Positions 1 to 18,990 of a stretch of DNA of 64,000 nucleotides are shown one piece after another (positions within the stretch are counted from its first letter, which is position 1; every line of letters begins with the position of its first letter). The notes beneath the pieces were generated by a model that was not told the origin of the DNA, did no database searches, and saw nothing but the letters and a program-made list of their open reading frames with translations. Origin of the DNA: a phage; the NCBI GenBank assembly GCA_036253495.1, contig GCA_036253495.1_4125.1; one strand, written 5' to 3'. Position numbers and translations under genes: made by a program.

Positions 1-88
1 TTCTTATGTATAATTTAATCTGTACTGCTATTGTTCCTTTCTTTTATGAAATTCACAATAACATTAAACGTAAAAAACGAGGTTAATT

Positions 89-442
89 ATGTTTTCTCCT
101 GCTGGGCAAGTTATATTCATGTTATGTACACTGGTATTCTTTATGTTCTCTGTACTACTTGTGATGAAATTCTTTCACATGAAACCATTCAGTACTTGGT
201 ATGATAATATTGTGTACTATATTGGTAATGCTATAACACTCTTTTCAGTTGCATACTATTTCGGTTATTTTGCAATGCTATTTGGGTTATTACTTGAGGC
301 TCGTGCATTGCTTGTAGCTGGTATGATGGCAGATTTAATGTGTATAACACTAGCCTGTATTGGATTTACTGTATGTATGTCGTTAACCATTTTTGACAAA
401 TTATGTAAACTACACAAACGTTTAGGTGAGAGGATGAAATAA
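89..442 (+). CDS. small integral membrane protein
   Basis: 117 aa, several hydrophobic TM-like segments; GAGG SD upstream; first of three coupled ORFs. Confidence 0.6.
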   Translation: MFSPAGQVIFMLCTLVFFMFSVLLVMKFFHMKPFSTWYDNIVYYIGNAITLFSVAYYFGYFAMLFGLLLEARALLVAGMMADLMCITLACIGFTVCMSLTIFDKLCKLHKRLGERMK

Positions 443-825
443 TGACTTACCGTGATTACTTTTGTATTTTTGAAATTGCAGTATTCGCTTTAGGTTCAGT
501 CTGGTTACTTCTATACTACTTCTGTATTAATCCAGTATTCAATTGGGTTCGTCGTGCTGAACAAAGTAGTGCTGGACAAATAGCAGTTGTTATGGGTATG
601 ACATATTATATGTTCGCCGTAGCTTCTGTTGTTATTGAAGTAATATTTGGTGGCATGAATGGTGATGATGGGGCAACGTTCTATGGATTCGTTACATTCT
701 TTAGTGTGCTGATTCCGTGTGGTGCTCTTATTATTACTGCGTTCTATTGGCTATATCGTGGTGTTAAGAAGCTGGAATCAATTCACGTAGATATGCGTTC
801 AAAACGAATGGGGATTGACAAATAA
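442..825 (+). CDS. small integral membrane protein (possibly DUF350/YjfL-like)
   Basis: 127 aa, TM-rich; ATGA start/stop overlap with upstream ORF; sits before DUF1190-like gene as yjfL does before yjfM. Confidence 0.55.
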   Translation: MTYRDYFCIFEIAVFALGSVWLLLYYFCINPVFNWVRRAEQSSAGQIAVVMGMTYYMFAVASVVIEVIFGGMNGDDGATFYGFVTFFSVLIPCGALIITAFYWLYRGVKKLESIHVDMRSKRMGIDK

Positions 826-1376
826 TGAAACGAAGTTCTAATGTCATTCGTGAACGATTTCGTAAAGTAAAAACTATTAAGTACGGAGCGATTGCCTTGG
901 CACTTAGTAGTACTTTTATTATGACTGGATGTGAACGCTCTGAAGATATTTCTGTATATCAGAATGTGGACCAATGTAAAAGAAGTGGTAGCAATCCGGT
1001 ACAATGTGAAGATGATTATAAAAAAGCACTAACTGAATCGGAAAAGGTAGCACCAAAATATAGTTCACAAAGTGATTGCTCTAGTGATTTTGGTAATCAG
1101 TGTCAACAGCATAGCTCTGGATTCTTTTGGATGCCAATTATGAGTGGATTCCATAGTAGTGGTAATGGGTTTGCTAGTCAACCATTATACAACTCTAAAG
1201 GGAACTTCTATGATGCTGGTGGTAACTCCTACGGTAGCAGTACTGCAAAAGGTACAACACGTACTGTATCAAGTTCCGCATTAGCTCCAAAACCTCCTAC
1301 AACGACCACAATCACCCGCAATGGGTTTGGGTCTTCAGTAGCCAGAAGTGCCGCTCACACGAGTTCTGGTGGATAA
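825..1376 (+). CDS. DUF1190 family lipoprotein (YgiB/YjfM-like)
   Basis: signal peptide with lipobox IMTGC; motifs QCQQ, FWMP, APKPPTTTTITRNGFG recalled from E. coli YgiB; ATGA overlap with upstream ORF. Confidence 0.65.
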   Translation: MKRSSNVIRERFRKVKTIKYGAIALALSSTFIMTGCERSEDISVYQNVDQCKRSGSNPVQCEDDYKKALTESEKVAPKYSSQSDCSSDFGNQCQQHSSGFFWMPIMSGFHSSGNGFASQPLYNSKGNFYDAGGNSYGSSTAKGTTRTVSSSALAPKPPTTTTITRNGFGSSVARSAAHTSSGG

Positions 1377-1380
1377 TAAA

Positions 1381-1407
1381 AAAAGCCCACTTAATGTGGG
1401 CTTTTTG
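1381..1407. terminator. bidirectional rho-independent terminator
   Basis: AAAAAGCCCAC-ttaat-GTGGGCTTTTTG between convergent genes. Confidence 0.75.
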
Positions 1408-4341
1408 TTATTTGTGTTTTATGTGTAAAGTGTCTAATATTGTATTGAACAATGATTTAGCAGAAATCATGATTACTTGATCAAAATCTTTAGTATAAGA
1501 AATATTAGCAGTACTGGAAGAATCTTTCACCTCATCCGGTAATGCATCAAACTCTTCTTTTTCCATAATCTTTTCAAGTTCTTCACGAGAAATGGCTTTT
1601 ACGTTTTCAATAGTCCTTAGTTGTATATTATAATCTTTATAATACGAAACTAAGTTCGTTGCGTATGAACCATCTTTAGATGCTGTGCCAGTAAAATCAT
1701 AACATCCTGTATCAGTACTAACCCAATCGATTTTCCCTGAACTACCACTATATACACCTTTGTTAAATTTAATATTAACAACATCGCCAATAGTTTTCAA
1801 TATACCACCTTTACATTCATTAAATGCGTTTAATTGATAACTTGTAGTCATATAGAATTTCGGTTCTAATGTAACAGTATCACCTACAGTTGCTTTCATA
1901 TCAGAAACACTTAAGAACAATTCATTAAATCCTTTTGAATAAGTCTTGGTAATTGTTGTCCCATCCCTGTTAGTTACTGTGTATTCTAAGTCCAATTCAC
2001 AAATACTATTCAATGATAAGTAAGGGATATCAAATTTATCAGTACTAGCATCATAAGGACATCTTGAGGATGGTAGTATACCAGTAGGGTTTGGTACGTA
2101 TTGAACTTTTGTTAACTCATACCCGCTTGCATTCGCTGGTGTAACTGTAATAGACGGTGTAGATATTCCTTTCATTCCACAGAAGTATATGTTATCTGGA
2201 AAATCATTTATTACGAAGTCAGTGACAGGAATATCATAAGTATCTTTATCAGTCCAATTAAGAACAACATTAGAACTGGTTGGATCAACAATATGTTCAC
2301 TAGAACCACAGAAATATACTGATTTGGTATTAGTAATCATTAGTAATGTTTTGGATGATGAGTTCAATTCAAGAACATCTTTCACTTCAAGACCAGATGG
2401 TAATGTCAATGGTAACTTCGTGAATGATGTTAAATCTTGTTCATCTTTAACACCACTAGTCCCCGCCGGAAACTTACCTGAACCATAGAAAACACCTTTA
2501 TTCGTCATGAAATACATGAACGGGGTTGATGTTCCTTTGTCAAATAGTTTAATGTCATCACATGTTAAACCATCAGGTAAACTTACTTTAGATGGAGTTC
2601 TATAAACACCAGGCTTAATACCACCTTCACCATTACTTACATCACCTAGTACATATAAATCTTTACCTAGTTTTAAGAACATTGATTTATTTTTAGCACA
2701 CAAGAATGTATCATATGATTTATCATCAATTGGTAGCTTGGTATACTCGGTGTATGTATGTATTGAATCATCAATCCACGAACTATCACCACTAATGTAA
2801 ATGTGATTGTTTCTGTCAATATAATATGAATACACATCAGTACTGTTCATATATAAAGCATTTAGTGCATTTGTTTTCACTAAGTGATTGAACTTAAGAA
2901 CTTGTTTTCCATCGTACTTATGGGAGTTGACACCAATATCACCATTCAGGCTACTACCAAATGAATATATGTGACCACGTGGTAATAGAACTTGAACACC
3001 ACTTTTGGTTAAATTATATTTGGAGTGCAAGAGATCGTTATATACAACTCTAACTTTCTTAAAGATATCAGTACATTCAATCCACGATTTAGATGGTGTA
3101 CCATCCATTCCTATTATTGCTGGATCACCATAATAATAAGCTTTATTTTCATATGATATTTTAAAAGATGATTTACCATCTTTTGTATTAGCACTGAAAT
3201 ACACATCTTTACTATCTTTAATTGGATAAGTACTATTCTCTACAAAAGTATTATATGAGATATCGTTGTTAGCACTATTAAGAACAAAAGAAGTAGATGT
3301 ACTATTGGACTTATAGACTGCTACGGAAGATGTATCACTGAAATCAATTTTAGTGAACGTATCTTTGTATGTTTCGTTTAATAATCCTACATAAAAAACA
3401 TCAGTGCCATCAGTAACGAATATAGCATTTCTATTATTACATAAAGAAGTAATATTTTTTACTACTTTATTTGAATTATAGTTCGGTAACTTCTTTAATC
3501 CACGAACAAAATTATCACAAATAATACCAGTACCATAGAAGTTATAATCTTTATCACAGTATATAAATGCTGTATCATATGGTGAAGTACTTAAATTCTT
3601 ATAGAATGGGAATGGAGTGAATGTGAATTGTAGAACATTACGCAATTCCCCTACTGTCTCTGTTGGGAATTGTCTGTTTTTATTATTTCCAAGAAAAACA
3701 ACTCTATCTGTTAGGTATGTGTACATAATTCCATATGGTTTTACGTACAAGTCATTATATCCTAATGATAATTTAGTTGGTGATGTTAGTGGACCGGAAT
3801 TTATTTTATTTTGGTTAAAAGAAAATTCATTTGAATTATAACCAGCCCCATATGTATTACCATCAGTACTTAAATAATATACAGTAGCTTCCCCTGCTCC
3901 AAGAAAAGTCTTTACATCAGTTGCTAACGTTTTTTTGAAAGTTGGATAAAATTTATTATATGTTCCCGTTCCCATCATCAGTTCACCATTGCGGTTATGA
4001 CCACGAGCATATAGAATACCTTTGTCTGTATCTAAGAAGAACATTCCATTATATGTTTTGTAAATCTTACCTTTTGTAATATCGAAATTGGAAAAATCAT
4101 CACTAATATCAATGAATATTGTCTCAAGGTTATCTTCAAGGGAGTTTAGAGATTTACCACAATACCATACTGAGTTATCTTTTTTAACAGCAACACAACC
4201 ACACGGACTGGCATCAAAATATGTTACATCGGAAAGAACCAGTGATAAGTTCTTTGTACTGCAATAGTTATCCATTGCATATAAATCGGAATCTTTAAGT
4301 ATATATACGGAATTCCCAACCGCTTTAATCGAATTTATCAT
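1408..4341 (-). CDS. large RCC1-like repeat protein (candidate tail fibre/receptor-binding protein)
   Basis: 977 aa from ATG with GAGGA SD (track TTG start at 4431 lacks SD); GxNxxGELxxG-type blades; lacks MLPFVRM N-terminus. Confidence 0.6.
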   Translation of the reverse strand: MINSIKAVGNSVYILKDSDLYAMDNYCSTKNLSLVLSDVTYFDASPCGCVAVKKDNSVWYCGKSLNSLEDNLETIFIDISDDFSNFDITKGKIYKTYNGMFFLDTDKGILYARGHNRNGELMMGTGTYNKFYPTFKKTLATDVKTFLGAGEATVYYLSTDGNTYGAGYNSNEFSFNQNKINSGPLTSPTKLSLGYNDLYVKPYGIMYTYLTDRVVFLGNNKNRQFPTETVGELRNVLQFTFTPFPFYKNLSTSPYDTAFIYCDKDYNFYGTGIICDNFVRGLKKLPNYNSNKVVKNITSLCNNRNAIFVTDGTDVFYVGLLNETYKDTFTKIDFSDTSSVAVYKSNSTSTSFVLNSANNDISYNTFVENSTYPIKDSKDVYFSANTKDGKSSFKISYENKAYYYGDPAIIGMDGTPSKSWIECTDIFKKVRVVYNDLLHSKYNLTKSGVQVLLPRGHIYSFGSSLNGDIGVNSHKYDGKQVLKFNHLVKTNALNALYMNSTDVYSYYIDRNNHIYISGDSSWIDDSIHTYTEYTKLPIDDKSYDTFLCAKNKSMFLKLGKDLYVLGDVSNGEGGIKPGVYRTPSKVSLPDGLTCDDIKLFDKGTSTPFMYFMTNKGVFYGSGKFPAGTSGVKDEQDLTSFTKLPLTLPSGLEVKDVLELNSSSKTLLMITNTKSVYFCGSSEHIVDPTSSNVVLNWTDKDTYDIPVTDFVINDFPDNIYFCGMKGISTPSITVTPANASGYELTKVQYVPNPTGILPSSRCPYDASTDKFDIPYLSLNSICELDLEYTVTNRDGTTITKTYSKGFNELFLSVSDMKATVGDTVTLEPKFYMTTSYQLNAFNECKGGILKTIGDVVNIKFNKGVYSGSSGKIDWVSTDTGCYDFTGTASKDGSYATNLVSYYKDYNIQLRTIENVKAISREELEKIMEKEEFDALPDEVKDSSSTANISYTKDFDQVIMISAKSLFNTILDTLHIKHK

Positions 4342-4561
4342 GTTTATATCCTCATAAATTGATACCAATTCTAATGTATTTACCCACTTAAAGTACAAAA
4401 AATGATCAATTAAATGGGGAATCTTTAACAAATGAATTCATGATGTACTTGATGAATTGCCCATACCAACGGATTCCCCAGTCCCAGCATACCACATGGT
4501 ATTATCGAACTTTTTTATAATTGTAGTATCATAACCACACCAAACATCATCAACATTAGTA

Positions 4562-5914
4562 TTACAACAATTGTATTTCTGTGAGTGTTTGATATGTTGT
4601 ACCGTTGTACACACCTCTCCAATATACCCTACCTTCAGTACTAACCACTAATAGTCCATATGTTGTAAACCCAAGAGTACCACCAACATACATAGCATCT
4701 TTAATTCGAATACCAATGTCTTCATATGTAAATGAAGCGACTGCTCCCGCTTGCCACGAAGGACTAGCGTAGTAATCACTATAAACACCATGTGCTTTAT
4801 ATATTGATGTTGTTCCTGGTTCAAAAATTACAGTTCCACAGTAGTTCATTCGTATTTTAGTACTGGATGAAGTCGGTACATTTATACCTATGCCATCTTT
4901 TATCCCTGTCGTTAGGACGTTAAAACCACCCGCCACACGGTTGACGTCATTCGCACCGATTAAAAACATACCAACGTTGTATCCCATATAATATACACTA
5001 CTACTTCCATTCCAGAAAGAAAAACCACCACCATTACCACAGCGATATAGTTGTGAATTTGAGCAGTACATCATACCTTCGTTTGTCGCATCAAATTCAT
5101 CTGCTGTTCCTATTGTAGCTACAGTAGTCCACGTTTTAATCACTTGGTTTGTACTAGCTGGTGTTTGTATACCATATCGTATATTATATCCCTTACCAAC
5201 GATTGTACCATCTTCTAATTTAGCATAAAGTACAGGTCTATTACCAACAAAATACATATTATTGTGTGACATGTCTATTGTGCATCTTAATGAAACTACT
5301 TTTTGTGTCAATTGATTATCTTTAGTAAAAGAAGTAAAGTAGTAATCCGATGTTGAGTTGTTTATTAAACCTTGTATTGACAATCCCATATACCAGATTT
5401 CACCATTGCTGTTTAATGCTGCCAAAATACAACTATATTTTGAAGTGTATGCTGGTGATGTTGTTGAAGTTGCTGGTCCTTTATCATATCCACCACAGAA
5501 TACCATCTCCACAACTTCACCTACGTTCGAAAAATAAGAAGATACATTGATAAAACCATTTGTTATAAAAGGTGCTGTATTCATACTTGAATGTGTGAAT
5601 ATCCCATTTGCATATACACCACAAAAATGATATGAACCATCATTATCTTGGACTATTATTCCATTTGATAGTAACCAAAAATTGTTTACATTTTTTCTTA
5701 CTAATTCAACTCCTGCACCATTGGTTGGTGTTATACCAAAAGAAACATATTTTGTTTGACCAATACCATATAAATTTCCATTAGTTGCTAGTATTGCACC
5801 AAACCAGTTCCCACCACCATTCCTATCATGACCCATACCAATGGAGTCGAATTTCTTTACAGTAGGAACTTCAACTTTATTCCCATAATCCAACATTCTT
5901 ACAAAAGGTAACAT
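4562..5914 (-). CDS. RCC1-like repeat protein, MLPFVRM-anchor paralog
   Basis: N-term MLPFVRMLDYGN; RCC1-like blades; SD AAGGAGG 6 nt upstream; track extension to 5980 rejected. Confidence 0.7.
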   Translation of the reverse strand: MLPFVRMLDYGNKVEVPTVKKFDSIGMGHDRNGGGNWFGAILATNGNLYGIGQTKYVSFGITPTNGAGVELVRKNVNNFWLLSNGIIVQDNDGSYHFCGVYANGIFTHSSMNTAPFITNGFINVSSYFSNVGEVVEMVFCGGYDKGPATSTTSPAYTSKYSCILAALNSNGEIWYMGLSIQGLINNSTSDYYFTSFTKDNQLTQKVVSLRCTIDMSHNNMYFVGNRPVLYAKLEDGTIVGKGYNIRYGIQTPASTNQVIKTWTTVATIGTADEFDATNEGMMYCSNSQLYRCGNGGGFSFWNGSSSVYYMGYNVGMFLIGANDVNRVAGGFNVLTTGIKDGIGINVPTSSSTKIRMNYCGTVIFEPGTTSIYKAHGVYSDYYASPSWQAGAVASFTYEDIGIRIKDAMYVGGTLGFTTYGLLVVSTEGRVYWRGVYNGTTYQTLTEIQLL

Positions 5915-5944
5915 ATATCCTCCTTTATTCATTATATTATATTT

Positions 5945-5980
5945 AATCAAAAAAGAAAAGCCAGTACAGAGTACTGGCAT
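5945..5980 (-). terminator. rho-independent terminator between RCC1 paralogs
   Basis: minus-strand GCCAGTAC-tct-GTACTGGC + TTTTCTTTTTTG. Confidence 0.6.
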
Positions 5981-5989
5981 TTAAAATAA

Positions 5990-7165
5990 TCAAAATGTAG
6001 GAAGTTTGAATTCTCTCATAACAGATGAACTGCTTGCAGATACATTATCTGGTGATTTCCCTGCGTAGTATAATTTATTATCAATGAACATATACAATGT
6101 TGCATCATTTCCTGCTACAAGTGATTCACTTTTCTTAAATTTAACACCACTAGGTAAAATTGCTTCAACAAATGAACCTGATTCTCTTGTAGTATTATTT
6201 GCCAATTGACCATTGTTATTATAACCAGTACTATAAATTTTACCTGAACTATAATATACGAGTCCACGAGTACTAGTGTTTTCTATTCGAATGAATTCAC
6301 TATCATCTGGAACTGTCGTTGATAGTACTGGGTTTAACTTATAAGCAGATGATACATTATTATTACCCAATTGACCATAACCTTGAAAGCCTAGTGTATA
6401 CATAGGACATGATTCTGGTGTACCTTTTGTTATAATACCAATATAATTCACACTACAAAAAATGTCTATTACTTCTGTAATAGGTGTACCCTTATATTGA
6501 ACCCAAGGGAATACATACGATTGTTGCTTACCATTTCCCAAAGTACCGGAAGTTGTTGTCCCAGTACGCCACATTGTATCATCAAGTTTAATAATCCAGT
6601 TAGCTGTCGTTATCGATGAACAGAATTTTTTAACATTATCCACTAAAAATGTAAATTGATTATAATATGATGCAGTGTTTATACCAAACTTAGCACCAGT
6701 ATTATCACCTAACAAATATAAACTATTATCTGTACCTAAAATCAAAGCATAATCATAACCCACGTATATATCTTTAATTCTTGAAATTCCAAATTGTGTA
6801 AAATAGCTTGTACATTCTGTGAATGTTGTTATATTATTGGTTGTATTATTACCTAGCCATTTATCTAAACCACTATAAAAGAATCTATCATCATTTGTGC
6901 GTATTAGACAAAAAGCGTTCATTGTACTGCACCAAAAATCTTTAACATTGCTATATATTTTTGTCCATTCAGTTACTGCATTAGTATGACCTAAACCAAA
7001 AATTCCACCATTCTGAAGACCAATAGCCCATATTGAACCATTTTTATCAAGCATCATTGTACATGTATGTGAATAACCACCCGATGGTGTAACTAATTTA
7101 ACAAAATTGGGAATATATGGTAAAACTTTATTTCCATAATCCAACATTCTAACAAAAGGTAACAT
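5990..7165 (-). CDS. RCC1-like repeat protein, MLPFVRM-anchor paralog
   Basis: N-term MLPFVRMLDYGN; motifs GFQGYGQLGNN, GYNNNGQLANN; SD AAGGAGG; track extension rejected. Confidence 0.7.
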   Translation of the reverse strand: MLPFVRMLDYGNKVLPYIPNFVKLVTPSGGYSHTCTMMLDKNGSIWAIGLQNGGIFGLGHTNAVTEWTKIYSNVKDFWCSTMNAFCLIRTNDDRFFYSGLDKWLGNNTTNNITTFTECTSYFTQFGISRIKDIYVGYDYALILGTDNSLYLLGDNTGAKFGINTASYYNQFTFLVDNVKKFCSSITTANWIIKLDDTMWRTGTTTSGTLGNGKQQSYVFPWVQYKGTPITEVIDIFCSVNYIGIITKGTPESCPMYTLGFQGYGQLGNNNVSSAYKLNPVLSTTVPDDSEFIRIENTSTRGLVYYSSGKIYSTGYNNNGQLANNTTRESGSFVEAILPSGVKFKKSESLVAGNDATLYMFIDNKLYYAGKSPDNVSASSSSVMREFKLPTF

Positions 7166-7195
7166 AATTCCTCCTTTATTCATTATACTATATTT

Positions 7196-7230
7196 AATCA
7201 AAAAAGAAATGCCAGCATCGAGTACTGGCA
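7196..7230 (-). terminator. rho-independent terminator between RCC1 paralogs
   Basis: minus-strand imperfect hairpin GCCAG..CTGGC + T-run. Confidence 0.55.
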
Positions 7231-7236
7231 TTATTG

Positions 7237-8424
7237 TTATAGTTGTCTTGGTGTATCAAGTACATATCTATTTGTACTAGGACCACCATCATCATACGTT
7301 CCGGTTGAATAGATATTTTTCATATCAGTTAGAAATGTACGATACGAACCTCTATATATTTTTATTTTATCATACATAGAATATGTTATTTGTGCTGGCA
7401 GTGGACATGCAGTAAATTTACCAATAGTAACATTAGAACCAACACCCAACGAACCAGCATAACTACTCGCATTTAAACCAGTTGCATATACACCAGTACT
7501 CGTAACTAGTATACTAGATTGTGTTGGGTATCCAGTATGGATTGAATACAAAGTTCCAGTTGGTAGAGTAGTACTATTATTTCCTAATACTGCTAGTGCT
7601 GTACTAGTCGTAGTGTTATTACCCCATGCACCATTACTAGCTAAACCACCCACAAGGAACTGTCGTGCTCCTGTACTTGGATTTTCAACTAAAGCACTGA
7701 CCGCACCACTTGAACAACCAGTATATTGTAATGTTTTTGTATATGTTGTACTTGGCTGATATAAAGTATATTCATTATAGGGAGTCCATGTAGTACTGGA
7801 ACTTATACCGGATGTACCACCACCAATATATAAATTATTTTGTGTATCAAAAAACATTACACAGTTATTTGTTGACTGTATTTGTGCAATATCAACATTA
7901 GGTGTGACAGCTTTTACAAATGATCCATCTGTTATTTGTTGAGTTTGTCCAGTACCATCAGCGAATTGTCTACCCCCACTCCAACCAGTACTCCATATTG
8001 TATTATTATCCATTAAGAAAGTAAACCACGTAGTACCTGCATACATCTGTTTAATTGAAGTACTTGAACTTTGTGTGTACAAATTTTCAATATATTGGTT
8101 ATAACTTAAAAATGATGTAGTACTAGTTTCTAAACCAATATGACTACCATATCCACAATAAAAATAATTTAAGTCATTATCTTGTACTAACAAAGTTCCT
8201 TGTGTCACCCAGCAATCTTTGACATTTTCTCTAATTAATGTCCATGATCTTAGTGCATTATTATTTCCTCTCCCAAATTTTCCAAAACTATTACTTCCTC
8301 GTGCGTATAGTTGACCATCAGTATAAAGTACAACAACATCAGTATCAGTTGGTATTATTTTCTTAATTTGAAGTGGAATAGGTACAATATTTCCATAATC
8401 AAACATTCTAACAAAAGGTAACAT
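7237..8424 (-). CDS. RCC1-like repeat protein, MLPFVRM-anchor paralog
   Basis: N-term MLPFVRMFDYGN; SD AAGGAGG; conserved upstream cassette. Confidence 0.7.
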   Translation of the reverse strand: MLPFVRMFDYGNIVPIPLQIKKIIPTDTDVVVLYTDGQLYARGSNSFGKFGRGNNNALRSWTLIRENVKDCWVTQGTLLVQDNDLNYFYCGYGSHIGLETSTTSFLSYNQYIENLYTQSSSTSIKQMYAGTTWFTFLMDNNTIWSTGWSGGRQFADGTGQTQQITDGSFVKAVTPNVDIAQIQSTNNCVMFFDTQNNLYIGGGTSGISSSTTWTPYNEYTLYQPSTTYTKTLQYTGCSSGAVSALVENPSTGARQFLVGGLASNGAWGNNTTTSTALAVLGNNSTTLPTGTLYSIHTGYPTQSSILVTSTGVYATGLNASSYAGSLGVGSNVTIGKFTACPLPAQITYSMYDKIKIYRGSYRTFLTDMKNIYSTGTYDDGGPSTNRYVLDTPRQL

Positions 8425-8455
8425 AATTCCTCCTTTATTCATTATATTATATTTA

Positions 8456-8490
8456 ATCCAAATAAGAAAGCCAGTATCAAGTACTGGCCT
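8456..8490 (-). terminator. rho-independent terminator between RCC1 paralogs
   Basis: minus-strand GCCAGTA-cttga-TACTGGC + TTTCTTATTTGG. Confidence 0.6.
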
Positions 8491-8494
8491 ATAT

Positions 8495-9664
8495 TTAAAC
8501 TGGTGAATCTAATACAAATTCTAAACTACTAATGCCACCATATGTGACATTTGTCCCTGTGCTATATACAAAATTACCATCAGTTATATAAGTTCGGTTA
8601 TACCCACCTGCCATCTGCGACTTACTATAATCAAACCCATCAGGAACGATTGCTTTGGTATATACTAATGCATTATTAGATGTACCAATACCTAACATAC
8701 CAGCTCCTGAAGATTTATTGTAGCCGCAACAATATATACCATCTGTTGTAGCAATAACTTGGTTATAATATGAAGTAATGTTAGCAATGCTTACTACATC
8801 ACCGGGTGGCATTAGTGAAGCAGTTTGAACCTCAAATGCTCTATAATCACTGAGAGAACCATTTATCCCATCTGCTTGTGCACCAAATATTCTCGAACCG
8901 CCATTTGCGATGATGGTTTTACCAGTGGGATCAGTACCAATTGCCATTGCCATTGAAGTACTATTCTCCATATAGTACTTGATATTAATTGTATTTCTTA
9001 AGCTGGTAGGAGCACCATAATATATAGTATATAACTTACCTCCTGAACTTGTAACTGCATTTACTCTTCCTGTATAAAATAGCCATCCTTGGTTTGTAAC
9101 ATAACCGTGCATTAAATTACTTGCAAACAATTTAACAGGTAATTGATCTGCTGCGGTCGGAACAGTACTTTTGACGAATTTTCTAGCAACATTGTTAGTT
9201 GTTGTCCCATCACCCAACTGACCATCACCCCCTGCTCCAGTACTCCATATTGTTTGGTCTGTTAGTAATACACTTGTAGTCTGATAACTAACTGCTATAT
9301 CTAATATTGGTAATGTTAACGTATCGAATGTTGGCATAGCAGAAGTCCATATTGATACTGCTGCCCCTGGCATACCAACAGTTGTTGAACTTCCACTGTA
9401 CCATATTTCATCATTGCTTTTCTTAATAACTATCGACGTGGCTCCCATCCAAAAATCTTGAACATCAGAAGTGCTAAAAGTCCATGTAGTAACAATATTT
9501 TTGTGACCTAAACCCAAAAGACCATTTGTATTCTCACCACGCACATATAAATCACCACTGTTTGTTAAAACAGCAACATTATAGTTGTTAGCTAGTATTT
9601 TTTTAATATTTGGTTTAGCAGGTGCAATATTCCCATACTCTAACATTCTTACAAAAGGTAACAT
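8495..9664 (-). CDS. RCC1-like repeat protein, MLPFVRM-anchor paralog
   Basis: N-term MLPFVRMLEYGN; motif GAGGDGQLGDGTT; SD AAGGAGG; 44-aa track extension rejected. Confidence 0.7.
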   Translation of the reverse strand: MLPFVRMLEYGNIAPAKPNIKKILANNYNVAVLTNSGDLYVRGENTNGLLGLGHKNIVTTWTFSTSDVQDFWMGATSIVIKKSNDEIWYSGSSTTVGMPGAAVSIWTSAMPTFDTLTLPILDIAVSYQTTSVLLTDQTIWSTGAGGDGQLGDGTTTNNVARKFVKSTVPTAADQLPVKLFASNLMHGYVTNQGWLFYTGRVNAVTSSGGKLYTIYYGAPTSLRNTINIKYYMENSTSMAMAIGTDPTGKTIIANGGSRIFGAQADGINGSLSDYRAFEVQTASLMPPGDVVSIANITSYYNQVIATTDGIYCCGYNKSSGAGMLGIGTSNNALVYTKAIVPDGFDYSKSQMAGGYNRTYITDGNFVYSTGTNVTYGGISSLEFVLDSPV

Positions 9665-9695
9665 AATTCCTCCTTTATTCATTATATTATATTTA

Positions 9696-9730
9696 ATCCA
9701 AATAAGAAAGCCAGTATCAAGTACTGGCTT
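9696..9730 (-). terminator. rho-independent terminator between RCC1 paralogs
   Basis: same cassette as 8456-8490. Confidence 0.6.
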
Positions 9731-9734
9731 TAAT

Positions 9735-10883
9735 TCATTGTATAAATGACATATCAACTTCGGTATATCTTGTAGTGTACTGCCCAGAACTTCCACCCAT
9801 TACTAGATTGGAAAAACCAGTATAAAATAACTTACCTTCATCTGTGAGAATCAAACTACCGATGTTATTCAGTACTAAACTGTAAGAACTATTAAAATTA
9901 GCATAGGACTGGGTATAATAGAACTGATTTGTAAGATTACCAACACCCAATTGTCCACCAGTGTTAACCCCAGTTGCAAATATCGTAGTACCAAATCTGC
10001 GAATATGTGAGGCCATATTGCCGACGCAACAATGTACATTCTGAACATCCGAATTCAATAAAGTTGGTGTTGTGTATTGCTTAAGTGTTGTGCCTGTACC
10101 GAATTCATTACCATATGATACCCCATACTGTGTACCACAAGCGTACAATTTATTATCATCTTTAATAAAAAATGTACTCTGATAACTTACATCGACATCT
10201 ATAACATTAGTCTGTATTCTAACAACTCCAGTACTAGCAGTTTGATTGCCTGTCCCTAACTGATAGTAAGTGTTAATACCACAACCCCATAATGTATTAT
10301 CTTCTTTTAGGTATATGTTACCAACAGCTTTTTTTACCGATGATATGGCTTCAATCTTAACAAAGGCGTTAAATGAATTTGTATTTGTGCCATTACCAAA
10401 AGATGATCTGGTTGATGTGCTGTTTGTTCCGCAGCAATATAAAGTACCATCAGTTGTTATCAAATTCACTTTAAGATCACTGTAACTACTCATGTATTTT
10501 ATATCAGAAACATTAATACCACTGGATGTTATCCATGAAGTACAATCTGTCCACGTGTTATAATATGCACCTGAACCAGAAAACGCACTCGGACTTCCAG
10601 TTATAAACACTTTTCCAGTACCGTCTTCTTCATATAATTGACAACCACTACTGTTATTTTCCAAAAGGACTCTTTTAACATTAGTCGCACTAAGAATAAA
10701 TTTACTCGACGCTACACCAGTTCCAGTACCCTGACTGACTGCCGCTGATGCATACAAATTTTTCGTGTATGTATCATGAAAATACATAGCACTACCGCCG
10801 GAATATATTTTAAAACGTGTACTAGGATCAGGCGGGTTAGGTGCAATATTCCCATAATCTAACATTCTTACAAAAGGTAACAT
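9735..10883 (-). CDS. RCC1-like repeat protein, MLPFVRM-anchor paralog
   Basis: N-term MLPFVRMLDYGN; motifs GINTYYQLGTGN, GVNTGGQLGVGN; close paralog of 13279-14427. Confidence 0.7.
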   Translation of the reverse strand: MLPFVRMLDYGNIAPNPPDPSTRFKIYSGGSAMYFHDTYTKNLYASAAVSQGTGTGVASSKFILSATNVKRVLLENNSSGCQLYEEDGTGKVFITGSPSAFSGSGAYYNTWTDCTSWITSSGINVSDIKYMSSYSDLKVNLITTDGTLYCCGTNSTSTRSSFGNGTNTNSFNAFVKIEAISSVKKAVGNIYLKEDNTLWGCGINTYYQLGTGNQTASTGVVRIQTNVIDVDVSYQSTFFIKDDNKLYACGTQYGVSYGNEFGTGTTLKQYTTPTLLNSDVQNVHCCVGNMASHIRRFGTTIFATGVNTGGQLGVGNLTNQFYYTQSYANFNSSYSLVLNNIGSLILTDEGKLFYTGFSNLVMGGSSGQYTTRYTEVDMSFIQ

Positions 10884-10915
10884 AATTCCTCCTTTATTCA
10901 TTATACTATATTTAA

Positions 10916-10950
10916 TACAAAAAAGAAAAGCCAGTATCAAGTACTGGCAT
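10916..10950 (-). terminator. rho-independent terminator between RCC1 paralogs
   Basis: minus-strand GCCAGTA-cttga-TACTGGC + T-run. Confidence 0.6.
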
Positions 10951-10954
10951 TATG

Positions 10955-12064
10955 TTATTTTGGTAAATCAATTTTAGTAAAGACTGCAACATCCTCGCTT
11001 GCACCGGGAATGGCGTAATACGTTCCAGTACTATATACATCTCCATTTTTGGTTAATATTGAAGTCAAACCATCACTAAAAAGAACATCCCTAATCTCAC
11101 TAACTTCAACGGGTAATTGTAAATTTGTAGCACTATATATAGCACCAGTTTGAGAATTGTTTAATCCCAAACCACGGTTCGCCCCAACACCCTTCTGATA
11201 TGTACTGGTAATTACCATTTGTGTAGCAGTATTTAATGCAGGTGAATTCGTCATAAACAACGGAGAACTATTAGGAAAAGTACTTGCAGGAACTGCACGG
11301 AATGTAGTCGTGCCTGAACTAAGAAAGTTTGGAGTTTGACCACATACGAAATATGATGTACCATTATAGTAATTAAATGCATTACCACCAATGGCTGCAT
11401 CGATTACACCAGAACTACGTAATCCCCAAGTGTTAATTTGTGTTTGGTCCCCTGTACCATGCTGCCCACTGCTATTCCATCCAGAACTATATAGCTTATT
11501 ATCTAATGTAATATACATACTATCATTTGCATTAGTCATTACTTTACGCACGTTAGTAGCACATTGAGTTAATGTGTAAATCGATGATGAGCCAATACCT
11601 AAAGAACCACGATATCCATTATCTCCTGCACCATAGAGTACTGAACTAGTGCTAAGTACAAATATTAAACCATTTGTACATACAATATTAGCAATTTCAC
11701 TCACTGGTATAGCATTGGTAAACCAATTAGTCCTTTCAACTAATATAGTACTGTAAGAAGTAGTTGTAGAAGATGAGAACCAGTACGTTTCACCCGATGT
11801 CCATATCGTATTATCATTTTTAATAATAACAAGTGTACGACCACCCACGAAAAAATTAGAAACATCTGAACTTACTAATATCCATGAAGATACCGTGTTG
11901 TTATTACCATTTCCAGATTCACCACCTTGATTTCTACCTATGTAATATAAATCATGTGAATCAGTCAATAAGAATTGACCCTGTGTAGAAGCACCAACTT
12001 TAATTATATTTTTAGGACCGGGTGTAATATTTCCATAATCAAACATTCTAACAAAAGGTAACAT
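10955..12064 (-). CDS. RCC1-like repeat protein, MLPFVRM-anchor paralog
   Basis: N-term MLPFVRMFDYGN; motif GWNSSGQHGTGD; SD AAGGAGG. Confidence 0.7.
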   Translation of the reverse strand: MLPFVRMFDYGNITPGPKNIIKVGASTQGQFLLTDSHDLYYIGRNQGGESGNGNNNTVSSWILVSSDVSNFFVGGRTLVIIKNDNTIWTSGETYWFSSSTTTSYSTILVERTNWFTNAIPVSEIANIVCTNGLIFVLSTSSVLYGAGDNGYRGSLGIGSSSIYTLTQCATNVRKVMTNANDSMYITLDNKLYSSGWNSSGQHGTGDQTQINTWGLRSSGVIDAAIGGNAFNYYNGTSYFVCGQTPNFLSSGTTTFRAVPASTFPNSSPLFMTNSPALNTATQMVITSTYQKGVGANRGLGLNNSQTGAIYSATNLQLPVEVSEIRDVLFSDGLTSILTKNGDVYSTGTYYAIPGASEDVAVFTKIDLPK

Positions 12065-12074
12065 ATTTCCCTCC

Positions 12075-13205
12075 TTAATTTAATAATGCCCCTGGCAAAT
12101 CCACTTTGACGAATTGTGCATATGCTGAGGAATTTTGATCAAAGTTTGGTCCCAATCCATAAAATGAGCTAATGCCGTCTTCATTTGTGTATATGATATA
12201 AACGTTCTTTACATCATTTCCGCATATAAATCGAATGTCTTTCGTTTGTGTTCCCGCTGGAACATTACGAAGGTTAACAACGCCATTACTTGCATTGTTA
12301 TCAGCCGACGCAATTGGTAATTGATTTTGATCATATTGACCACGCATATTTTTTGCATCTAAACCAAACACAGTATTTGATACCGCACCAACTTTCAAAA
12401 ATGAACCAAAACTATTATTGAATGACTTTGGAAATTTACCACTATAAACACTTCTCCCATCTGATAATACCGCTGAACTGAATGCCCCGCTATTCGATAT
12501 GGCAAATTCATTGTAAGGAAGTGTACCCATTTTGGTATATACAGAATATGAATTAGTGGAAGTATTATCAATAATCTTATTACCATTATATCCAATACCA
12601 TACTGGTATCCGTCTGCATCTTGAACTATACACAAAGGACCACTTGGGGTTTGTGTCAACGAAACAACACGTTCAACTTGTATATCACCAAATGTATTTC
12701 TTCGCCATGTTCTATCTATTATAGTACTAGTATTACCCAAAGATAATGCCACACTATATAATAGATTGTTTTCAGTAAAAATGGCAACATAATATGGGTG
12801 GTTAATAACTTGCTTCATCCCAGCATCAATAACTTCCTGTGGAATATGATCAGTAACATCCAACCAATCAAGGTTAGATGATGCAATATCTGGAGTACTG
12901 AATTTGTCAAATCTAGTTGAGCCACAAACTAGCACTCTATCATCATTTGTCAAAGCCACTGTGCTAGTCTGCATATTAGAACTGAATGATTTAACATTAC
13001 TAATGTTAGACTTGTACCAACCCTTATCAGCAGCACCCACCGTGAATCCGGTTCCCATTGATCCACTTGTACTTGTACCATAAGCCCACATCTCACCACT
13101 ATATGTTAGTGCCATACAGTGGCTTCCATTTGCTTGGAAATCCTTTATACCAGTGGGAGCAACCACTGTATTCCCATAATTAAACATTCTAACAAAAGGT
13201 AACAT
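12075..13205 (-). CDS. RCC1-like repeat protein, MLPFVRM-anchor paralog
   Basis: N-term MLPFVRMFNYGN; tightly coupled to downstream paralog (10-nt gap, SD AAGGAGGG). Confidence 0.65.
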   Translation of the reverse strand: MLPFVRMFNYGNTVVAPTGIKDFQANGSHCMALTYSGEMWAYGTSTSGSMGTGFTVGAADKGWYKSNISNVKSFSSNMQTSTVALTNDDRVLVCGSTRFDKFSTPDIASSNLDWLDVTDHIPQEVIDAGMKQVINHPYYVAIFTENNLLYSVALSLGNTSTIIDRTWRRNTFGDIQVERVVSLTQTPSGPLCIVQDADGYQYGIGYNGNKIIDNTSTNSYSVYTKMGTLPYNEFAISNSGAFSSAVLSDGRSVYSGKFPKSFNNSFGSFLKVGAVSNTVFGLDAKNMRGQYDQNQLPIASADNNASNGVVNLRNVPAGTQTKDIRFICGNDVKNVYIIYTNEDGISSFYGLGPNFDQNSSAYAQFVKVDLPGALLN

Positions 13206-13237
13206 ATTTCCCTCCTTTATTCATTATACTATATTTA

Positions 13238-13272
13238 ATCAAAAATAAAAGCCAGTACTTGAGTACTGGCAT
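13238..13272 (-). terminator. rho-independent terminator between RCC1 paralogs
   Basis: minus-strand GCCAGTACTC-aa-GTACTGGC + TTTTATTTTTG. Confidence 0.6.
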
Positions 13273-13278
13273 ATTAAT

Positions 13279-14427
13279 TCATTGTATAAATGACATATCT
13301 ACTTCTGTATAATTAAGAACGTTCTGTCCAGAAATACCACCCATTACTACTATTGCAATGCCACAATAATATAATTTTCCAGTATCCGTAAGTATAAGTG
13401 ATCCAGATGGACTGCGTACCAAATTACAAGAGGTATTAAACGAAGTATATGAAGGAGTATAGGAGTACTGATTAATATTATTACCAACACCTAATTGACC
13501 AGACGAGTTGCTTCCAGATGCATAAAGTACTTCATCACCTTTAACTATATGTGATGCCATGTTACCAACACAAGTATATAAACTATAAACACCTGCACTC
13601 AATAATGTGGGAGTTTTATATTGTATATCAGTAGAAGAGGAAGTACCACCTGTACCAAATTCGTTCCCATATTGTGCACCGAACTGTTTACCACAAGCGT
13701 ACAAATTATTATCCGATTTGATAAAAAATGTACTCTGATAACTTACATTAAAATCTATAACATCCGAAGAAATCATCGTCACCCCAGTAATAGAAGTTTG
13801 ATTACCCGTGCCCAACTGGTAGTAATAGTTAAAACCACAACCCCATAAAGTATTATCTTCTCGCAAATAAATGTTACCAACTGCCTTTTTAACCGAAGTT
13901 ATAGTATCTACTCTTTTGAATGTGTTAAAAGAATTAATGTTTGTACCATCACCAAATGATGATATGTTCGATATATTGTTAGCTCCACAACAATACAATG
14001 TACCATCGTTTGTTATCAAATTCACCTTCATATCATAAAAACTACTCATGTATTTTATATCAGAAACATTAATACCACTTGATGTTATCCACGTAGTACA
14101 GTCCGTCCACAAAGTTTTTCTATCAGTTACACCAGTGAATGCCTTCGTGTTACCAGTGATAAAAACTTTTCCAGTACCTTTCTCTTCATACAATTGACAA
14201 TCACTACTGTTATCTTCCAATAGAACTCGTTTAACATTCTCCGCACAAAGAATAAATTTACTCGATGCTACACCTGTACCAGTACCCCAATTCGTCGCAG
14301 AAGATGCATACAACTTATCAGTATAAGTATCATGAAGATACATGGAATCACTGGAATATATTTTAAAACGTCCATCATCACCAGGGGCAATATTCCCATA
14401 ATCAAACAATCTAACAAAAGGTAACAT
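13279..14427 (-). CDS. RCC1-like repeat protein, MLPFVRM-anchor paralog
   Basis: N-term MLPFVRLFDYGN; motifs GFNYYYQLGTGN, GSNSSGQLGVGN; first gene of minus-strand cluster. Confidence 0.7.
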   Translation of the reverse strand: MLPFVRLFDYGNIAPGDDGRFKIYSSDSMYLHDTYTDKLYASSATNWGTGTGVASSKFILCAENVKRVLLEDNSSDCQLYEEKGTGKVFITGNTKAFTGVTDRKTLWTDCTTWITSSGINVSDIKYMSSFYDMKVNLITNDGTLYCCGANNISNISSFGDGTNINSFNTFKRVDTITSVKKAVGNIYLREDNTLWGCGFNYYYQLGTGNQTSITGVTMISSDVIDFNVSYQSTFFIKSDNNLYACGKQFGAQYGNEFGTGGTSSSTDIQYKTPTLLSAGVYSLYTCVGNMASHIVKGDEVLYASGSNSSGQLGVGNNINQYSYTPSYTSFNTSCNLVRSPSGSLILTDTGKLYYCGIAIVVMGGISGQNVLNYTEVDMSFIQ

Positions 14428-14475
14428 AATTCCTCCTTTATTCATTATAATATATTTAATCAAAAAAGAAAACCC

Positions 14476-15766: not shown

Positions 15767-15946
15767 ATGCTAGAATACTACCTAAGCGTAATTTACCCAG
15801 AAGATAGATACGGCTTCAATTACTTCTCAATGAGCTATCATTGTAGTTCGCAAAGAAAACAAAGAAAATTACTCCTGAATTGTACTAAATTGGCACAGGA
15901 CGAAATGTTCACATATAATGAAGTACTGAAACTAATTTCTATCTAA
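15767..15946 (+). CDS. small hypothetical protein, family A (59 aa, not in ORF track)
   Basis: MLEYYLSVIY...YNEVLKLISI; below the 60-aa track cutoff. Confidence 0.6.
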   Translation: MLEYYLSVIYPEDRYGFNYFSMSYHCSSQRKQRKLLLNCTKLAQDEMFTYNEVLKLISI

Positions 15947-15954
15947 GGTACACT

Positions 15955-16134
15955 ATGCAAGAATTCTATATCTATAAACTCCAGAACAAAGATAGATACA
16001 TCTATAATCAATTCCAAAGGTACTACACAGTCGGGAACAAAAGAGATAAAAAACGATACCTGCTATCATGTACAGTAGAAGCACAAAACGAAAAGTACAC
16101 GTACAGAGAAGTACTGAAACTAATCTCTATATAA
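15955..16134 (+). CDS. small hypothetical protein, family A (59 aa, not in ORF track)
   Basis: MQEFYIYKLQNKDRY...YREVLKLISI; close paralog of 15767-15946. Confidence 0.6.
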   Translation: MQEFYIYKLQNKDRYIYNQFQRYYTVGNKRDKKRYLLSCTVEAQNEKYTYREVLKLISI

Positions 16135-16144
16135 GGAATAAACT

Positions 16145-16324
16145 ATGCTAGAGTACTACACCGATAATCTCAGTACTAAGGATCGTTTCATGTACGACAC
16201 CTTCGTGAAGTACTACAACCTGGGAACAAAAAGTACTAAAACTATTAATCTCAATAGCTGCATTCATCACGTCCTGACAAAAAATAACCCATACAGAGAA
16301 ATAATCTCGCTTGTAACAGTATAA
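16145..16324 (+). CDS. small hypothetical protein, family A (59 aa, not in ORF track)
   Basis: MLEYYTDNLSTKDRF...YREIISLVTV; overlapping antisense track ORF 16148-16429 rejected. Confidence 0.6.
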   Translation: MLEYYTDNLSTKDRFMYDTFVKYYNLGTKSTKTINLNSCIHHVLTKNNPYREIISLVTV

Positions 16325-16352
16325 GCAGTATAAGCAATTTAAGGAGACTAAA

Positions 16353-17024
16353 ATGAAACTCAATCCACAAAGCAAACGATACCTACAGCACTTCAAGTAC
16401 CTGCAATCAATCCAGGCTGAATCTACCACTAATGCATATACTTATCACCCTAATGTACTAAAGAACCTAAAGAAAAGTAAAAAAACCAGTACAAATGGAG
16501 TTAACGTATCAAAGAACCTTGAATTGTACATGAAGAAAAATAATATAGCTGTTCATTATATGAATATCTATAATACTGATTTAAAAGTATTGAGTACTAA
16601 TACGAGCATGAAGGTACTAAAGAACGCATCCTTCATCATCCATATGCAGTTGGATAATACCCCGTGCACTTTAATGCTATACTTCGGGAATACATACTTC
16701 TTCGGGAATTGTAACACCTCCCACGATGTCAATACAGCACAATTCCAAATGGGTGGCATATACAGTATGGGTTCAGAAGAAATACACGATAACATGCATT
16801 TCTTCCAACAGCAACGTACAGAAGAAACTAAATCAATTGTAGAATTCCTCAAAGAACTAGAACACAAAGAATTATCAGAAGAAGAACTATTCATGTACAG
16901 TACTGTAATCGATAATCCTGTACTGTACAAAAACGCGTACAATCTTACAAAACATGTACAGGAACTTATCAGTACTAATAAGAAAATTCATCACCTCATT
17001 ACATATATTACAAACTATGCATAA
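16353..17024 (+). CDS. hypothetical protein (223 aa) with family C-like EEELFMYSTVID motif
   Basis: SD AAGGAGA; embedded in family A array; C-terminal motif resembles family C core. Confidence 0.6.
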   Translation: MKLNPQSKRYLQHFKYLQSIQAESTTNAYTYHPNVLKNLKKSKKTSTNGVNVSKNLELYMKKNNIAVHYMNIYNTDLKVLSTNTSMKVLKNASFIIHMQLDNTPCTLMLYFGNTYFFGNCNTSHDVNTAQFQMGGIYSMGSEEIHDNMHFFQQQRTEETKSIVEFLKELEHKELSEEELFMYSTVIDNPVLYKNAYNLTKHVQELISTNKKIHHLITYITNYA

Positions 17025-18360: not shown

Positions 18361-18990
18361 TTAAACACATATAGCTAGGGGAAGCTCCGTAGTGCAAGCA
18401 TTATACAGGCTTTAACATATGTTGCATATGTTAAAATTCAGCCTGGACAAATGCGATCACTAGGATTCTCCCCAGGCTAAACCCCGTAATCATAAGTAAT
18501 CATATATAAACATTTAAGTAATCATTTATAATCATTGTAGTGAACAGTATTGAGTACTAGAGTGCAGGAATGATTCAGAATGATTCAGTACTGATATCCC
18601 ACTAAGTAGGCAAATGAAGTCGCCCAAAATTTACATAATTTTACAGTACTGAACAATTGCAAAACAAATCATTTCCAATCAAAAGTAATCACGGAATGAC
18701 CAGTACTGAAAACTCCCAATCACCTATTCAAAAAAGTTCAATTTACCCTTTGTCAAAAATCCCGAATACCCATTGGGGAAAATTCCGAATACCCCTTGAG
18801 GCTCCAGCAAAAAGTTGGTTAGTACTCCATCGTAAATCTGGATCGTAAAAATTTTGGAGTACCTATGAAATAAAAGTTGGATCTTCGAAAGTTGAAATTT
18901 ACATTGGGACATATAGGATTAGTGGGATATAATGAGTTTTGAAGAGATACAGAGTATACGATTTCAGTACTGAATAATGGAAGAAATCTA

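Follow-up and report, generated by a model that had tools for sequence, protein, structure and literature searches.

In T4-type phages, promoter-early stem-loops (PeSLs), which are repeated stem-loop and promoter motifs in hyperplastic regions, flank genes that differ between close relatives and have been proposed to mediate insertion, deletion and exchange between copies (PMC2839356, PMC4122927). Short conserved N-termini are known on two kinds of phage protein. The secondary receptor-binding proteins (RBPs) of the K1-5/SP6, KP32, Menlow and PhiK64-1 groups carry N-terminal docking peptides of 7 to 11 residues, and the Rak2-like jumbo Klebsiella phages have 10 to 11 RBPs (PMC6872550). The internal proteins of T4 carry a conserved capsid targeting sequence of about 10 residues on unrelated, fast-evolving virion proteins encoded at a hypervariable locus (PMC3012670). 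In the jumbo phages 121Q, PBECO4, phAPEC6 and Munch, tandem "DNA condensation / RCC1" arrays have already been noted (PMC5259590, PMC7247149, PMC8273493). Here we describe an array of this type in a 64,000-nucleotide stretch of phage DNA (GenBank assembly GCA_036253495.1, contig GCA_036253495.1_4125.1; hereafter the window), in which eight genes share a 12-residue N-terminus (the tag) and most are preceded by a repeated terminator-promoter cassette.

The array locus is thus already listed in the literature but mislabelled, and the new part is the tag and cassette architecture. The searched passages on these genes in the three papers (PMC5259590, PMC7247149, PMC8273493) mention neither the tag, nor its non-RCC1 folds, nor the cassette, nor cassette-bounded shuffling. 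The comparisons below give good support to an architecture of one universal tag, binding folds that can be exchanged behind it, and portable cassettes of terminator, promoter and tag. We lean towards the explanation that the array encodes virion-borne binding modules that can replace one another, share a tag for docking or incorporation and are shuffled via PeSL-like cassettes.

Eight array genes share one N-terminal tag

The window matched Asteriusvirus, the Rak2-like jumbo coliphages with genomes of about 350 kb. Its closest match was Escherichia phage A4, with 97.9% identity across positions 1-9731, beyond which the homology stops. The array is flanked by converging plus-strand genes at the left and by diverging plus-strand small early-type genes at the right. 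An initial annotation, made from the letters alone, had described eight consecutive minus-strand genes with a common 12-residue N-terminus, and both the translations of the open reading frames (ORFs) and a six-frame motif search agreed with it. The eight tagged ORFs start at 14427, 13205, 12064, 10883, 9664, 8424, 7165 and 5914, and all begin with MLPFVR(M/L)(L/F)(D/N/E)YGN; no further copy of an MLPFVR-type motif was found in the six frames of the 64 kb. The array genes are as follows (body groups are defined below).

13279-14427, minus strand: array gene 1, 382 residues, group C; tag MLPFVRLFDYGN and RCC1-like propeller (RCC1_2 46 bits, RCC1 37 bits)
12075-13205, minus strand: array gene 2, 376 residues, group K; tag MLPFVRMFNYGN and RCC1-like body; two-gene unit with gene 3
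10955-12064, minus strand: array gene 3, 369 residues, group A; tag MLPFVRMFDYGN and RCC1-like body; translationally coupled, without cassette
9735-10883, minus strand: array gene 4, 382 residues, group C, second copy
8495-9664, minus strand: array gene 5, 389 residues, group F; modelled as a 7-bladed RCC1-like propeller; ortholog of phAPEC6 gp003
7237-8424, minus strand: array gene 6, 395 residues, group B
5990-7165, minus strand: array gene 7, 391 residues, group E
4562-5914, minus strand: array gene 8, 450 residues, group J; tag present; divergent RCC1-like body

Behind the tag the proteins diverge. Genes 1 and 4, both of group C, are 67% identical and form the lone close pair of the array; the bodies are otherwise merely 25-30% identical to one another. 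Pfam RCC1 or RCC1_2 scored above the curated cut-off in six of the eight tagged genes, and gene 6 was borderline (21.4 versus 22 bits). Gene 8 had no Pfam match at all. It aligned end to end with PHROG 4219, a "regulator of chromosome condensation" family. A separate hhalign match of gene 8 is inflated because the profile contained the query. The four blade motifs quoted in the initial annotation are present in the translations. Its view that all of the proteins are RCC1-type is slightly overstated for gene 8 and for a 977-residue protein encoded next to the array. The array proteins are rich in serine, threonine, glycine and asparagine, have few charged residues and have isoelectric points (pI) of 5.0 to 8.0.

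The tag is independent of the fold behind it

The tag follows the consensus M-L/I-P-F-x-R-M/I-x-x-Y-G-N and is succeeded by a proline-containing linker, approximately I-A-P-x-P, and then by a self-contained fold. When 25 diverse members were aligned, M1, P3, F4, R6 and N12 were invariant, and L2, Y10, G11 and P15 were conserved in at least 90%. Cronobacter phage GAP32 has a single-copy homologue, gp001, with the N-terminus MLPFSRIIQYGN. Salmonella phage Munch has 15 genes beginning with MIPFxRILxYGN, including a Gly_rich_2 protein and an unassigned 233-residue protein; the genes that PMC8273493 words as "three unrelated hypothetical proteins" bear the tag. A Kelch-propeller member with the tag occurs in BF17 and A4. 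In a metagenomic relative (locus L012), seven MIPF... genes form one coupled operon with a single promoter.

The clearest case of fold independence is Xanthomonas phage XbC2, in which five tightly coupled genes (locus 97-4146) all begin with MLPFPQLVQYGN and have no cassette. Behind the tag they encode one Kelch-repeat body, two Laminin_G_3/ConA-lectin bodies, one body of unassigned fold and one RCC1 propeller. For the lectin-type tagged bodies, the matching PHROGs families carry the annotations virion structural protein or baseplate wedge subunit. The 49-kb structural module of phAPEC6 was found to contain no gene with the tag.

Single-copy genes and cassette-less operons of several genera have retained the tag at the amino-acid level, so it is under selection as a protein sequence. 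It is not RCC1-specific and works independently of the fold behind it. The initial annotation had described the shared N-terminus on RCC1-like paralogs; this is extended here to Kelch, LamG/ConA and other bodies and across genera.

A terminator-promoter cassette precedes most of the array genes

The 30-nucleotide promoter and Shine-Dalgarno (SD) block, GATTAAATATA(A/G)TATAATGAATAAAGGAGG, has seven copies in the window with 0 to 1 mismatch, versus 0 expected, and the hairpin GCCAG..CTGGC has six copies versus 0.08 expected. The copies are located as follows.

14432-14461, minus strand: promoter/SD block of gene 1, TAAATA-TAT-TATAAT and AAGGAGG; no hairpin (upstream segment -1.8 kcal/mol)
13211-13270, minus strand: full cassette of gene 2; hairpin 13251-13270, T-run, GATTAAATATAGTATAATGAATAAAGGAGG at 13211-13240
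10888-10948, minus strand: cassette of gene 4; hairpin 10930-10948, promoter/SD 10888-10917
9669-9728, minus strand: cassette of gene 5; hairpin 9710-9728, promoter/SD 9669-9698; the homology with A4 ends at 9731
8429-8488, minus strand: cassette of gene 6; hairpin 8470-8488, promoter/SD 8429-8458
7170-7229, minus strand: cassette of gene 7; hairpin 7211-7229 with a G-U pair, promoter/SD 7170-7199
5919-5978, minus strand: cassette of gene 8; hairpin 5960-5978, promoter/SD 5919-5948

Because the cassette hairpins fold at -10 to -13 kcal/mol and each is followed by a U-run, they are intrinsic terminators of the preceding gene. When the eight genes were aligned at their start codons, the DNA was near-invariant from about -75 to +37, synonymous sites included, and then fell to background identity. 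The repeat unit is therefore about 110 bp and consists, in order, of the terminator, the T-run, TTAAATA-N3-TATAAT, AAGGAGG and the 12 tag codons (36 nucleotides).

Six of the paralogs are indeed preceded by the cassette, and gene 1 lacks the hairpin, as the initial annotation had stated. The gene that it described as directly coupled, 12075-13205, was the wrong one: this gene has a full cassette, and the coupled, cassette-less gene is 10955-12064, which follows the stop codon of 12075-13205 after a 10-nucleotide gap (12065-12074) that contains an SD alone. This K-A adjacency of array genes 2 and 3 recurs in BF17 and EC.P1. The longer ORF calls (MNKGGIM...) are artefacts, as had been suspected, because the upstream in-frame ATG has no SD and sits within TATAATG.

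Dozens of further hairpin and promoter copies were found in seven related phages and Munch. Among phages the hairpin stems have changed in a compensatory manner (GCCAG/CTGGC, ACCAG/CTGGT, GACAG/CTGTC and GCTAG/CTAGC), and loops and stems also vary through indels. A Megablast search with one 113-nucleotide cassette against all phages placed it at 1 to 5 sites per genome, under array genes; Megablast is too insensitive for so short a repeat, and these numbers are not counts of cassette copies per genome.

The cassette bounds gene shuffling among relatives

We compared eight genomes, namely the window, A4, phAPEC6, G17, PBECO4, UE-S1, BF17 and EC.P1. They contain 88 tag-starting ORFs, and those of at least 100 residues form 26 body groups at 60% identity or more. 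The array ranges from 8 genes (the window and A4) to 15 (BF17), and the gene orders differ: C K A C F B E J in the window, N D D A F B E J in A4, V G A F C D B H O W P Q in G17 and C R M A I H B E D in UE-S1. Between the window and the other seven phages, every homology-block end in the array lies at, or within a few tens of nucleotides of, a cassette/tag boundary, in many cases right where the tag finishes on its 3' side or in the hairpin, and no breakpoint was seen inside the bodies.

The tag and the body also differ in their histories. The 18-nucleotide tag haplotypes (codons 5 to 10) are discrete, and one identical haplotype occurs in up to 11 genes of different body groups; orthologues differ in theirs, as in group A, where different phages have VRMFD, GRMVK, GRMIR or VRLFD. 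Tag divergence was 10.8% between different bodies of the same genome and 11.8% between orthologous bodies of different genomes. In the next 150 nucleotides, the corresponding values were 66% and 15%. The tags thus evolve in concert and recombine, and they do so separately from the bodies.

Tag-only stubs, MLPFRRIITSSK... (MLPF(R/G)RIITSSK..., 44-74 residues), are found at the downstream array ends of phAPEC6, G17 and PBECO4 (L002_5084, L003_3995 and L004_7773). Such a stub could be what is left of a decayed member, or a spare landing pad where a new body can be added.

These comparisons demonstrated, at the level of sequence, that the cassette repeat is the unit boundary for gene insertion, deletion, duplication and reordering between close relatives, and that the tag codons are homogenised by gene conversion in which the bodies take no part. 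In support of the initial annotation, the cassette is conserved in relatives, and individual genes are gained, lost and reordered at it.

Structure models support an RCC1-like propeller behind a flexible tag

Structure models were obtained for two array genes, 8495-9664 and 4562-5914. The AlphaFold2 model of 8495-9664, built from a 25-sequence alignment, had a mean predicted local distance difference test score (pLDDT) of 87.7 and a predicted template modelling score (pTM) of 0.87. Residues 1 to 13 were of low confidence or disordered, and the first strand begins at about residue 20. Foldseek matched the model to UVR8 with a template modelling (TM) score of 0.76-0.81 and an E value of 3e-22, and also to RCC1, RPGR and HERC2, all of which are 7-bladed RCC1-like propellers with sequence identities of 15-17%. 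The proposed beta-propeller with a short unstructured N-terminal segment is what this model and these matches showed.

Among viral models (BFVD), 8495-9664 matched GAP32 gp1, PBECO4 paralogs and proteins of the Pseudomonas phages PollyC and Littlefix, which have a predicted T7 tail-fibre N-domain followed by an RCC1-like propeller. The model of 4562-5914 was poor (pLDDT 57) and confident for the first ~180 residues only, so the fold of this protein is unconfirmed beyond the first blades.

We also considered the tag as a "velcro" strand that closes the propeller. This was ruled out, as the tag is of low confidence and outside the propeller in the model and is also carried by lectin and Kelch bodies.

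The cassette promoter differs from the early promoters

In the 64 kb, an exact TAAATA-N3-TATAAT occurs in the seven cassettes alone. The element is kept in Munch, GAP32, G17 and the metagenomic operon, and the stretch between it and the SD varies. No -35 box was found in the cassette, the hexamer 17 nucleotides upstream of TATAAT being CTTTTC, and the internal cassettes have no TGn extension. The array cassette consequently does not fit a sigma-70 early promoter of the TTGACA-N17-TATAAT type, whereas at least 24 early promoters in the window belong to a different, near-consensus sigma-70 class.

In phAPEC6, the T4-type late box (T)ATAAATA stands upstream of structural genes (capsid, scaffold, protease, baseplate and others); in two of them TATAAT lies a few bases downstream of the late box, and gp250c, a virion protein, carries ATTAAATA, the same as the cassette. 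Late expression of the array from the TAAATA core is plausible on this basis. The earlier suggestion that the TATAAT element is a late-type promoter gains from the TAAATA core, which is that of the structural-gene late promoters and unlike the early ones; it is weakened by the cassette having TTAAATA where the late consensus is ATAAATA.

The hairpin loop TTGATA, which resembles AGTAC-TTGACA of the early promoters, was considered as a -35 box and rejected: the loop varies among cassettes, and its spacing to TATAAT is 28 nucleotides.

Array proteins of relatives were detected in virion preparations

Mass spectrometry (MS) of phAPEC6 virions found eight array proteins, gp003, 005, 006, 007, 009, 010, 549 and 551 (PMC7247149, Table 1), and GAP32 gp001 was detected in virions by MS (PMC5259590). 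phAPEC6 gp003 is the orthologue of the window gene 8495-9664. The suggested virion location of the proteins is supported by these homologues in purified phAPEC6 and GAP32 particles (PMC7247149, PMC5259590), with likely contaminants in the same phAPEC6 list. Two full-length tagged ORFs of phAPEC6, at locus positions 12093-13283 (group B) and 15803-16912 (group A), are unannotated, and for that reason both the MS list and the published figure of eleven probably fall short.

Phage CBB has a "hairy" virion, yet no homologue of the array proteins is reported for it (PMC5259590). The array proteins were considered as the whiskers of phAPEC6 and CBB, and this candidate was rejected since CBB has whiskers and no homologue.

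Other features of the window

Three further features lie at the downstream end of the array, together with the terminator that closes it.

4432-4561, minus strand: start-less RCC1-like fragment ending NVDDVWCGYDTTIIKKFDNTMWYAGTGESVGMGNSSSTS*, directly past the stop of gene 4562-5914
4368-4382, minus strand: promoter-like GGGTAAATACATTAGAAT of the 977-residue protein gene, a one-mismatch version of the cassette element
1408-4341, minus strand: gene of the 977-residue protein, without tag; RCC1-like region at about residues 385-700
1380-1406, no strand assigned: bidirectional terminator at the array end, facing the converging plus-strand genes

The fragment at 4432-4561 resembles the annotated N-terminus of PBECO4 gp296. 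Judged by its sequence, it is the remnant of a deleted array member, with the rare 977-residue protein gene coming next. Both the fragment and the tag-only stubs of relatives are consistent with array turnover.

The 977-residue protein lacks the anchor, as had been noted, and its RCC1 likeness is confined to the middle third. Pfam gave WD40_RLD only, below the cut-off, and a search against PDB sequences gave nothing significant. By tblastn its relatives among phage records were found in phage A4 alone. The gene is whole in the window; its A4 equivalent (A4 locus 6005-8942) is annotated as two overlapping genes of 668 and 314 residues.

The most over-represented hexamer of the window is AGTACT (mostly CAGTACTG), with 271 copies in 64 kb versus about 22 expected; the phAPEC6 structural module has 88 versus 14.5 expected. 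In a phage, a palindrome would not be expected to be so strongly enriched. The sites occur in coding and non-coding DNA, for example across 14500-40000, flank early -35/-10 boxes, precede late TATAAATA boxes and form the arms of the array hairpins. AGTACT is absent from window positions 46000-52000 and has 2 copies per 2 kb at 40-44 kb, versus 9-19 per 2 kb in the neighbouring DNA. The AGTACT-free stretch may represent a module that differs in origin or in regulation.

At least 24 near-identical early cassettes lie on the plus strand of window 18990-38600, each before a small ORF, with the layout aaAGTAC-TTG(A/C)CAA-N-CAGTAC-TGTATAAT-rtTTTACAT-CAAGGGGAGAAnnGTTCTCCCC-SD-ATG. These sigma-70 promoter and stem-loop cassettes of window 18.9-38.6 kb resemble PeSLs. 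A 26-bp direct repeat, AGTACTGTTATTAACAGAATGGTAGC, is present in about 2.5 copies at 19152-19230, in the intergenic DNA from which the array side and the early region diverge, and may serve as an iteron or an operator. No tRNA genes were found in the 64-kb window.

Discussion

If the array encodes interchangeable binding modules, the tag would be a shared signal for incorporation or docking, directing whatever body is fused to it to the same virion site or sites. Because the array ranges from 8 to at least 15 genes, all with the same tag, despite conserved structural genes, the paralogs would have to share or compete for those sites. The bodies would bind diverse host-surface ligands as auxiliary adhesins or receptor-binding modules, turnover of the array would retune the binding range of the virion, and expression would most likely be late, from the TAAATA core. 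We favour displayed adhesins or receptor-binding modules because of the lectin, Kelch and RCC1 folds, the composition rich in serine, threonine, glycine and asparagine with pI 5-8, the relatives fused to fibre N-domains and the docking peptides of 7 to 11 residues known on secondary RBPs. A bolder version, which we hold to be possible but doubtful, is that the universal tag loads any of 8-17 unrelated modules on fixed sites, so that competition would give each particle a stochastic subset, a combinatorial surface for bet-hedging host recognition that cassette recombination keeps re-dealing.

Several points weigh against the display of binding modules. An external location on the virion and host binding of the array proteins are argued by analogy. 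Classical receptor-binding proteins are trimeric fibres or spikes, and the array proteins are predicted to be single globular propellers. Breakpoints at repeats are partly expected wherever conserved spacers separate variable genes, and the TTAAATA of the cassette departs from the late consensus. The phAPEC6 MS list includes thymidylate synthase, a single-stranded DNA-binding protein, a RecA-like protein and topoisomerase, and with such obvious non-structural proteins some co-purification is possible; the coverage of the array proteins is also low, at 3-17% versus 21% for the 12-copy portal (PMC7247149). The hairiness of CBB without a homologue means that the array proteins are not the hairs (PMC5259590).

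The same virion MS (PMC7247149) would also fit packaged internal proteins that are ejected with the DNA, with the tag in the role that the capsid targeting sequence has in T4 internal proteins. It would load a diversified set of host-interaction or anti-defence proteins into the prohead, perhaps into the inner body. This explanation, which we think unlikely though it deserves to be taken seriously, is helped by the inner body seen in 121Q and phAPEC6, by the position of the array genes outside the structural module and beside the early region, and by a T4 gp21-like prohead protease encoded by the phage. However, neither the tag nor the sequence that follows it has a conserved glutamate or (L/I)xxE-type cleavage motif. 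Position 9 is D/E/N in one set of tags and K/R/N/Q in another, and residues 10-12 are YGN, followed by I-A-P. The proteins are acidic-to-neutral propeller and lectin-type proteins of about 40 kDa rather than small basic ones, and both their folds (lectin, Kelch and RCC1) and the relatives joined to fibre domains suggest extracellular binding. By a rough volume estimate, an inner body of 91 x 18 nm would need hundreds of copies, whereas the MS coverage of 3-17% is below that of the 12-copy portal. If the proteins were instead cytoplasmic host-takeover or regulatory factors that co-purify with virions, the tag could serve, for example, for recognition by an intracellular chaperone or partner. 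The clear contaminants in the phAPEC6 list, the adjoining early region and the use of eukaryotic RCC1-like domains as protein-interaction platforms agree with this. We nevertheless consider it improbable, as eight different phAPEC6 members and, independently, the lone GAP32 member were detected, the cassette promoter class is unlike the early promoters of the window, and the lectin-type bodies match PHROGs virion structural or baseplate wedge families.

Two further explanations would remove either the protein function of the tag or the binding function of the bodies. The shared N-terminus could be a by-product of a regulatory repeat that spreads by gene conversion into the first codons, since nucleotide identity, at synonymous sites too, runs from the non-coding cassette through codon 12 and tag haplotypes are spread across non-orthologous genes. 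This was already disfavoured and is in our view very unlikely: the amino-acid motif is kept in other genera in a single-copy gene (GAP32) or in coupled genes without cassette (XbC2, L012), with MLPFPQLVQYGN and MIPFARILxYGN as examples, and five of its residues are invariant in 25 members. The name "chromosome condensation" is inherited from eukaryotic RCC1, a Ran guanine nucleotide exchange factor (GEF), and we know of no Ran or nucleosome partner in the bacterial host. The GenBank labels "regulator of chromosome condensation" and "DNA condensation protein" would make the array products chromatin-like proteins that organise the packaged genome. The RCC1 fold is present, and in the phAPEC6 paper it was speculated that the proteins help to order the DNA or belong to the inner body (PMC7247149). 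But the label derives only from the eukaryotic family name and is unsupported because the proteins are acidic to neutral (pI 5.0-8.0, few charged residues); lectin and Kelch domains bear the same tag, and extreme diversification and copy-number turnover would be unexpected for a DNA-packing component. We give this explanation hardly any weight.

In the light of these results, the "chromosome/DNA condensation" database label of the array genes appears mistaken. Should the tag be a general signal for virion incorporation, it would explain why related therapeutic jumbo coliphages differ most at this locus, and a determinant of host range or adsorption would lie outside the annotated tail-fibre genes. 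The cassette shuffling of T4-type small early genes would extend to large virion proteins, with the junction within the coding sequence. The 12-residue tag might then be used as a handle to display or package foreign proteins on jumbo phages.

Comparison with known systems

Like PeSLs, the array cassette is a composite of stem-loop and promoter, with six full copies and one promoter-only copy in 10 kb, and it bounds the indels and replacements between close relatives. It differs in that its promoter has no -35 box and a late-like TAAATA core, whereas PeSLs have the sigma-70 early consensus; in that the repeat extends through the SD into the first 12 codons and so carries a protein tag; and in that the genes encode large virion proteins rather than small early ORFans.

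The array proteins share with the docking-peptide RBPs a short conserved N-terminus followed by a variable specificity domain, with several proteins per phage. The bodies of those RBPs are trimeric beta-helix depolymerases that dock on T4gp10-like branching domains, whereas the array bodies are predicted globular propellers or lectin folds, and in the array one tag is common to 8 to 15 or more proteins. A conserved N-terminus of about 10 residues on diverse bodies is also the likeness to the T4 internal proteins. Unlike these, the array tags have no prohead-protease motif ending in glutamate, and the array proteins are neither small nor basic, with folds that suggest extracellular binding.

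The propeller fold is common to the array proteins and the RCC1-like domains (RLDs) of UVR8, RCC1, RPGR and HERC2 (TM 0.76-0.81), and the Ran-GEF context is absent from the array. In the predicted fibre proteins of PollyC and Littlefix the propeller is C-terminal, while in the array it stands alone, with the 12-residue tag in place of a fibre shaft. The arrays of 121Q, PBECO4, phAPEC6 and Munch are the same gene family at the same locus, treated in the passages on them as duplicated DNA-condensation genes.

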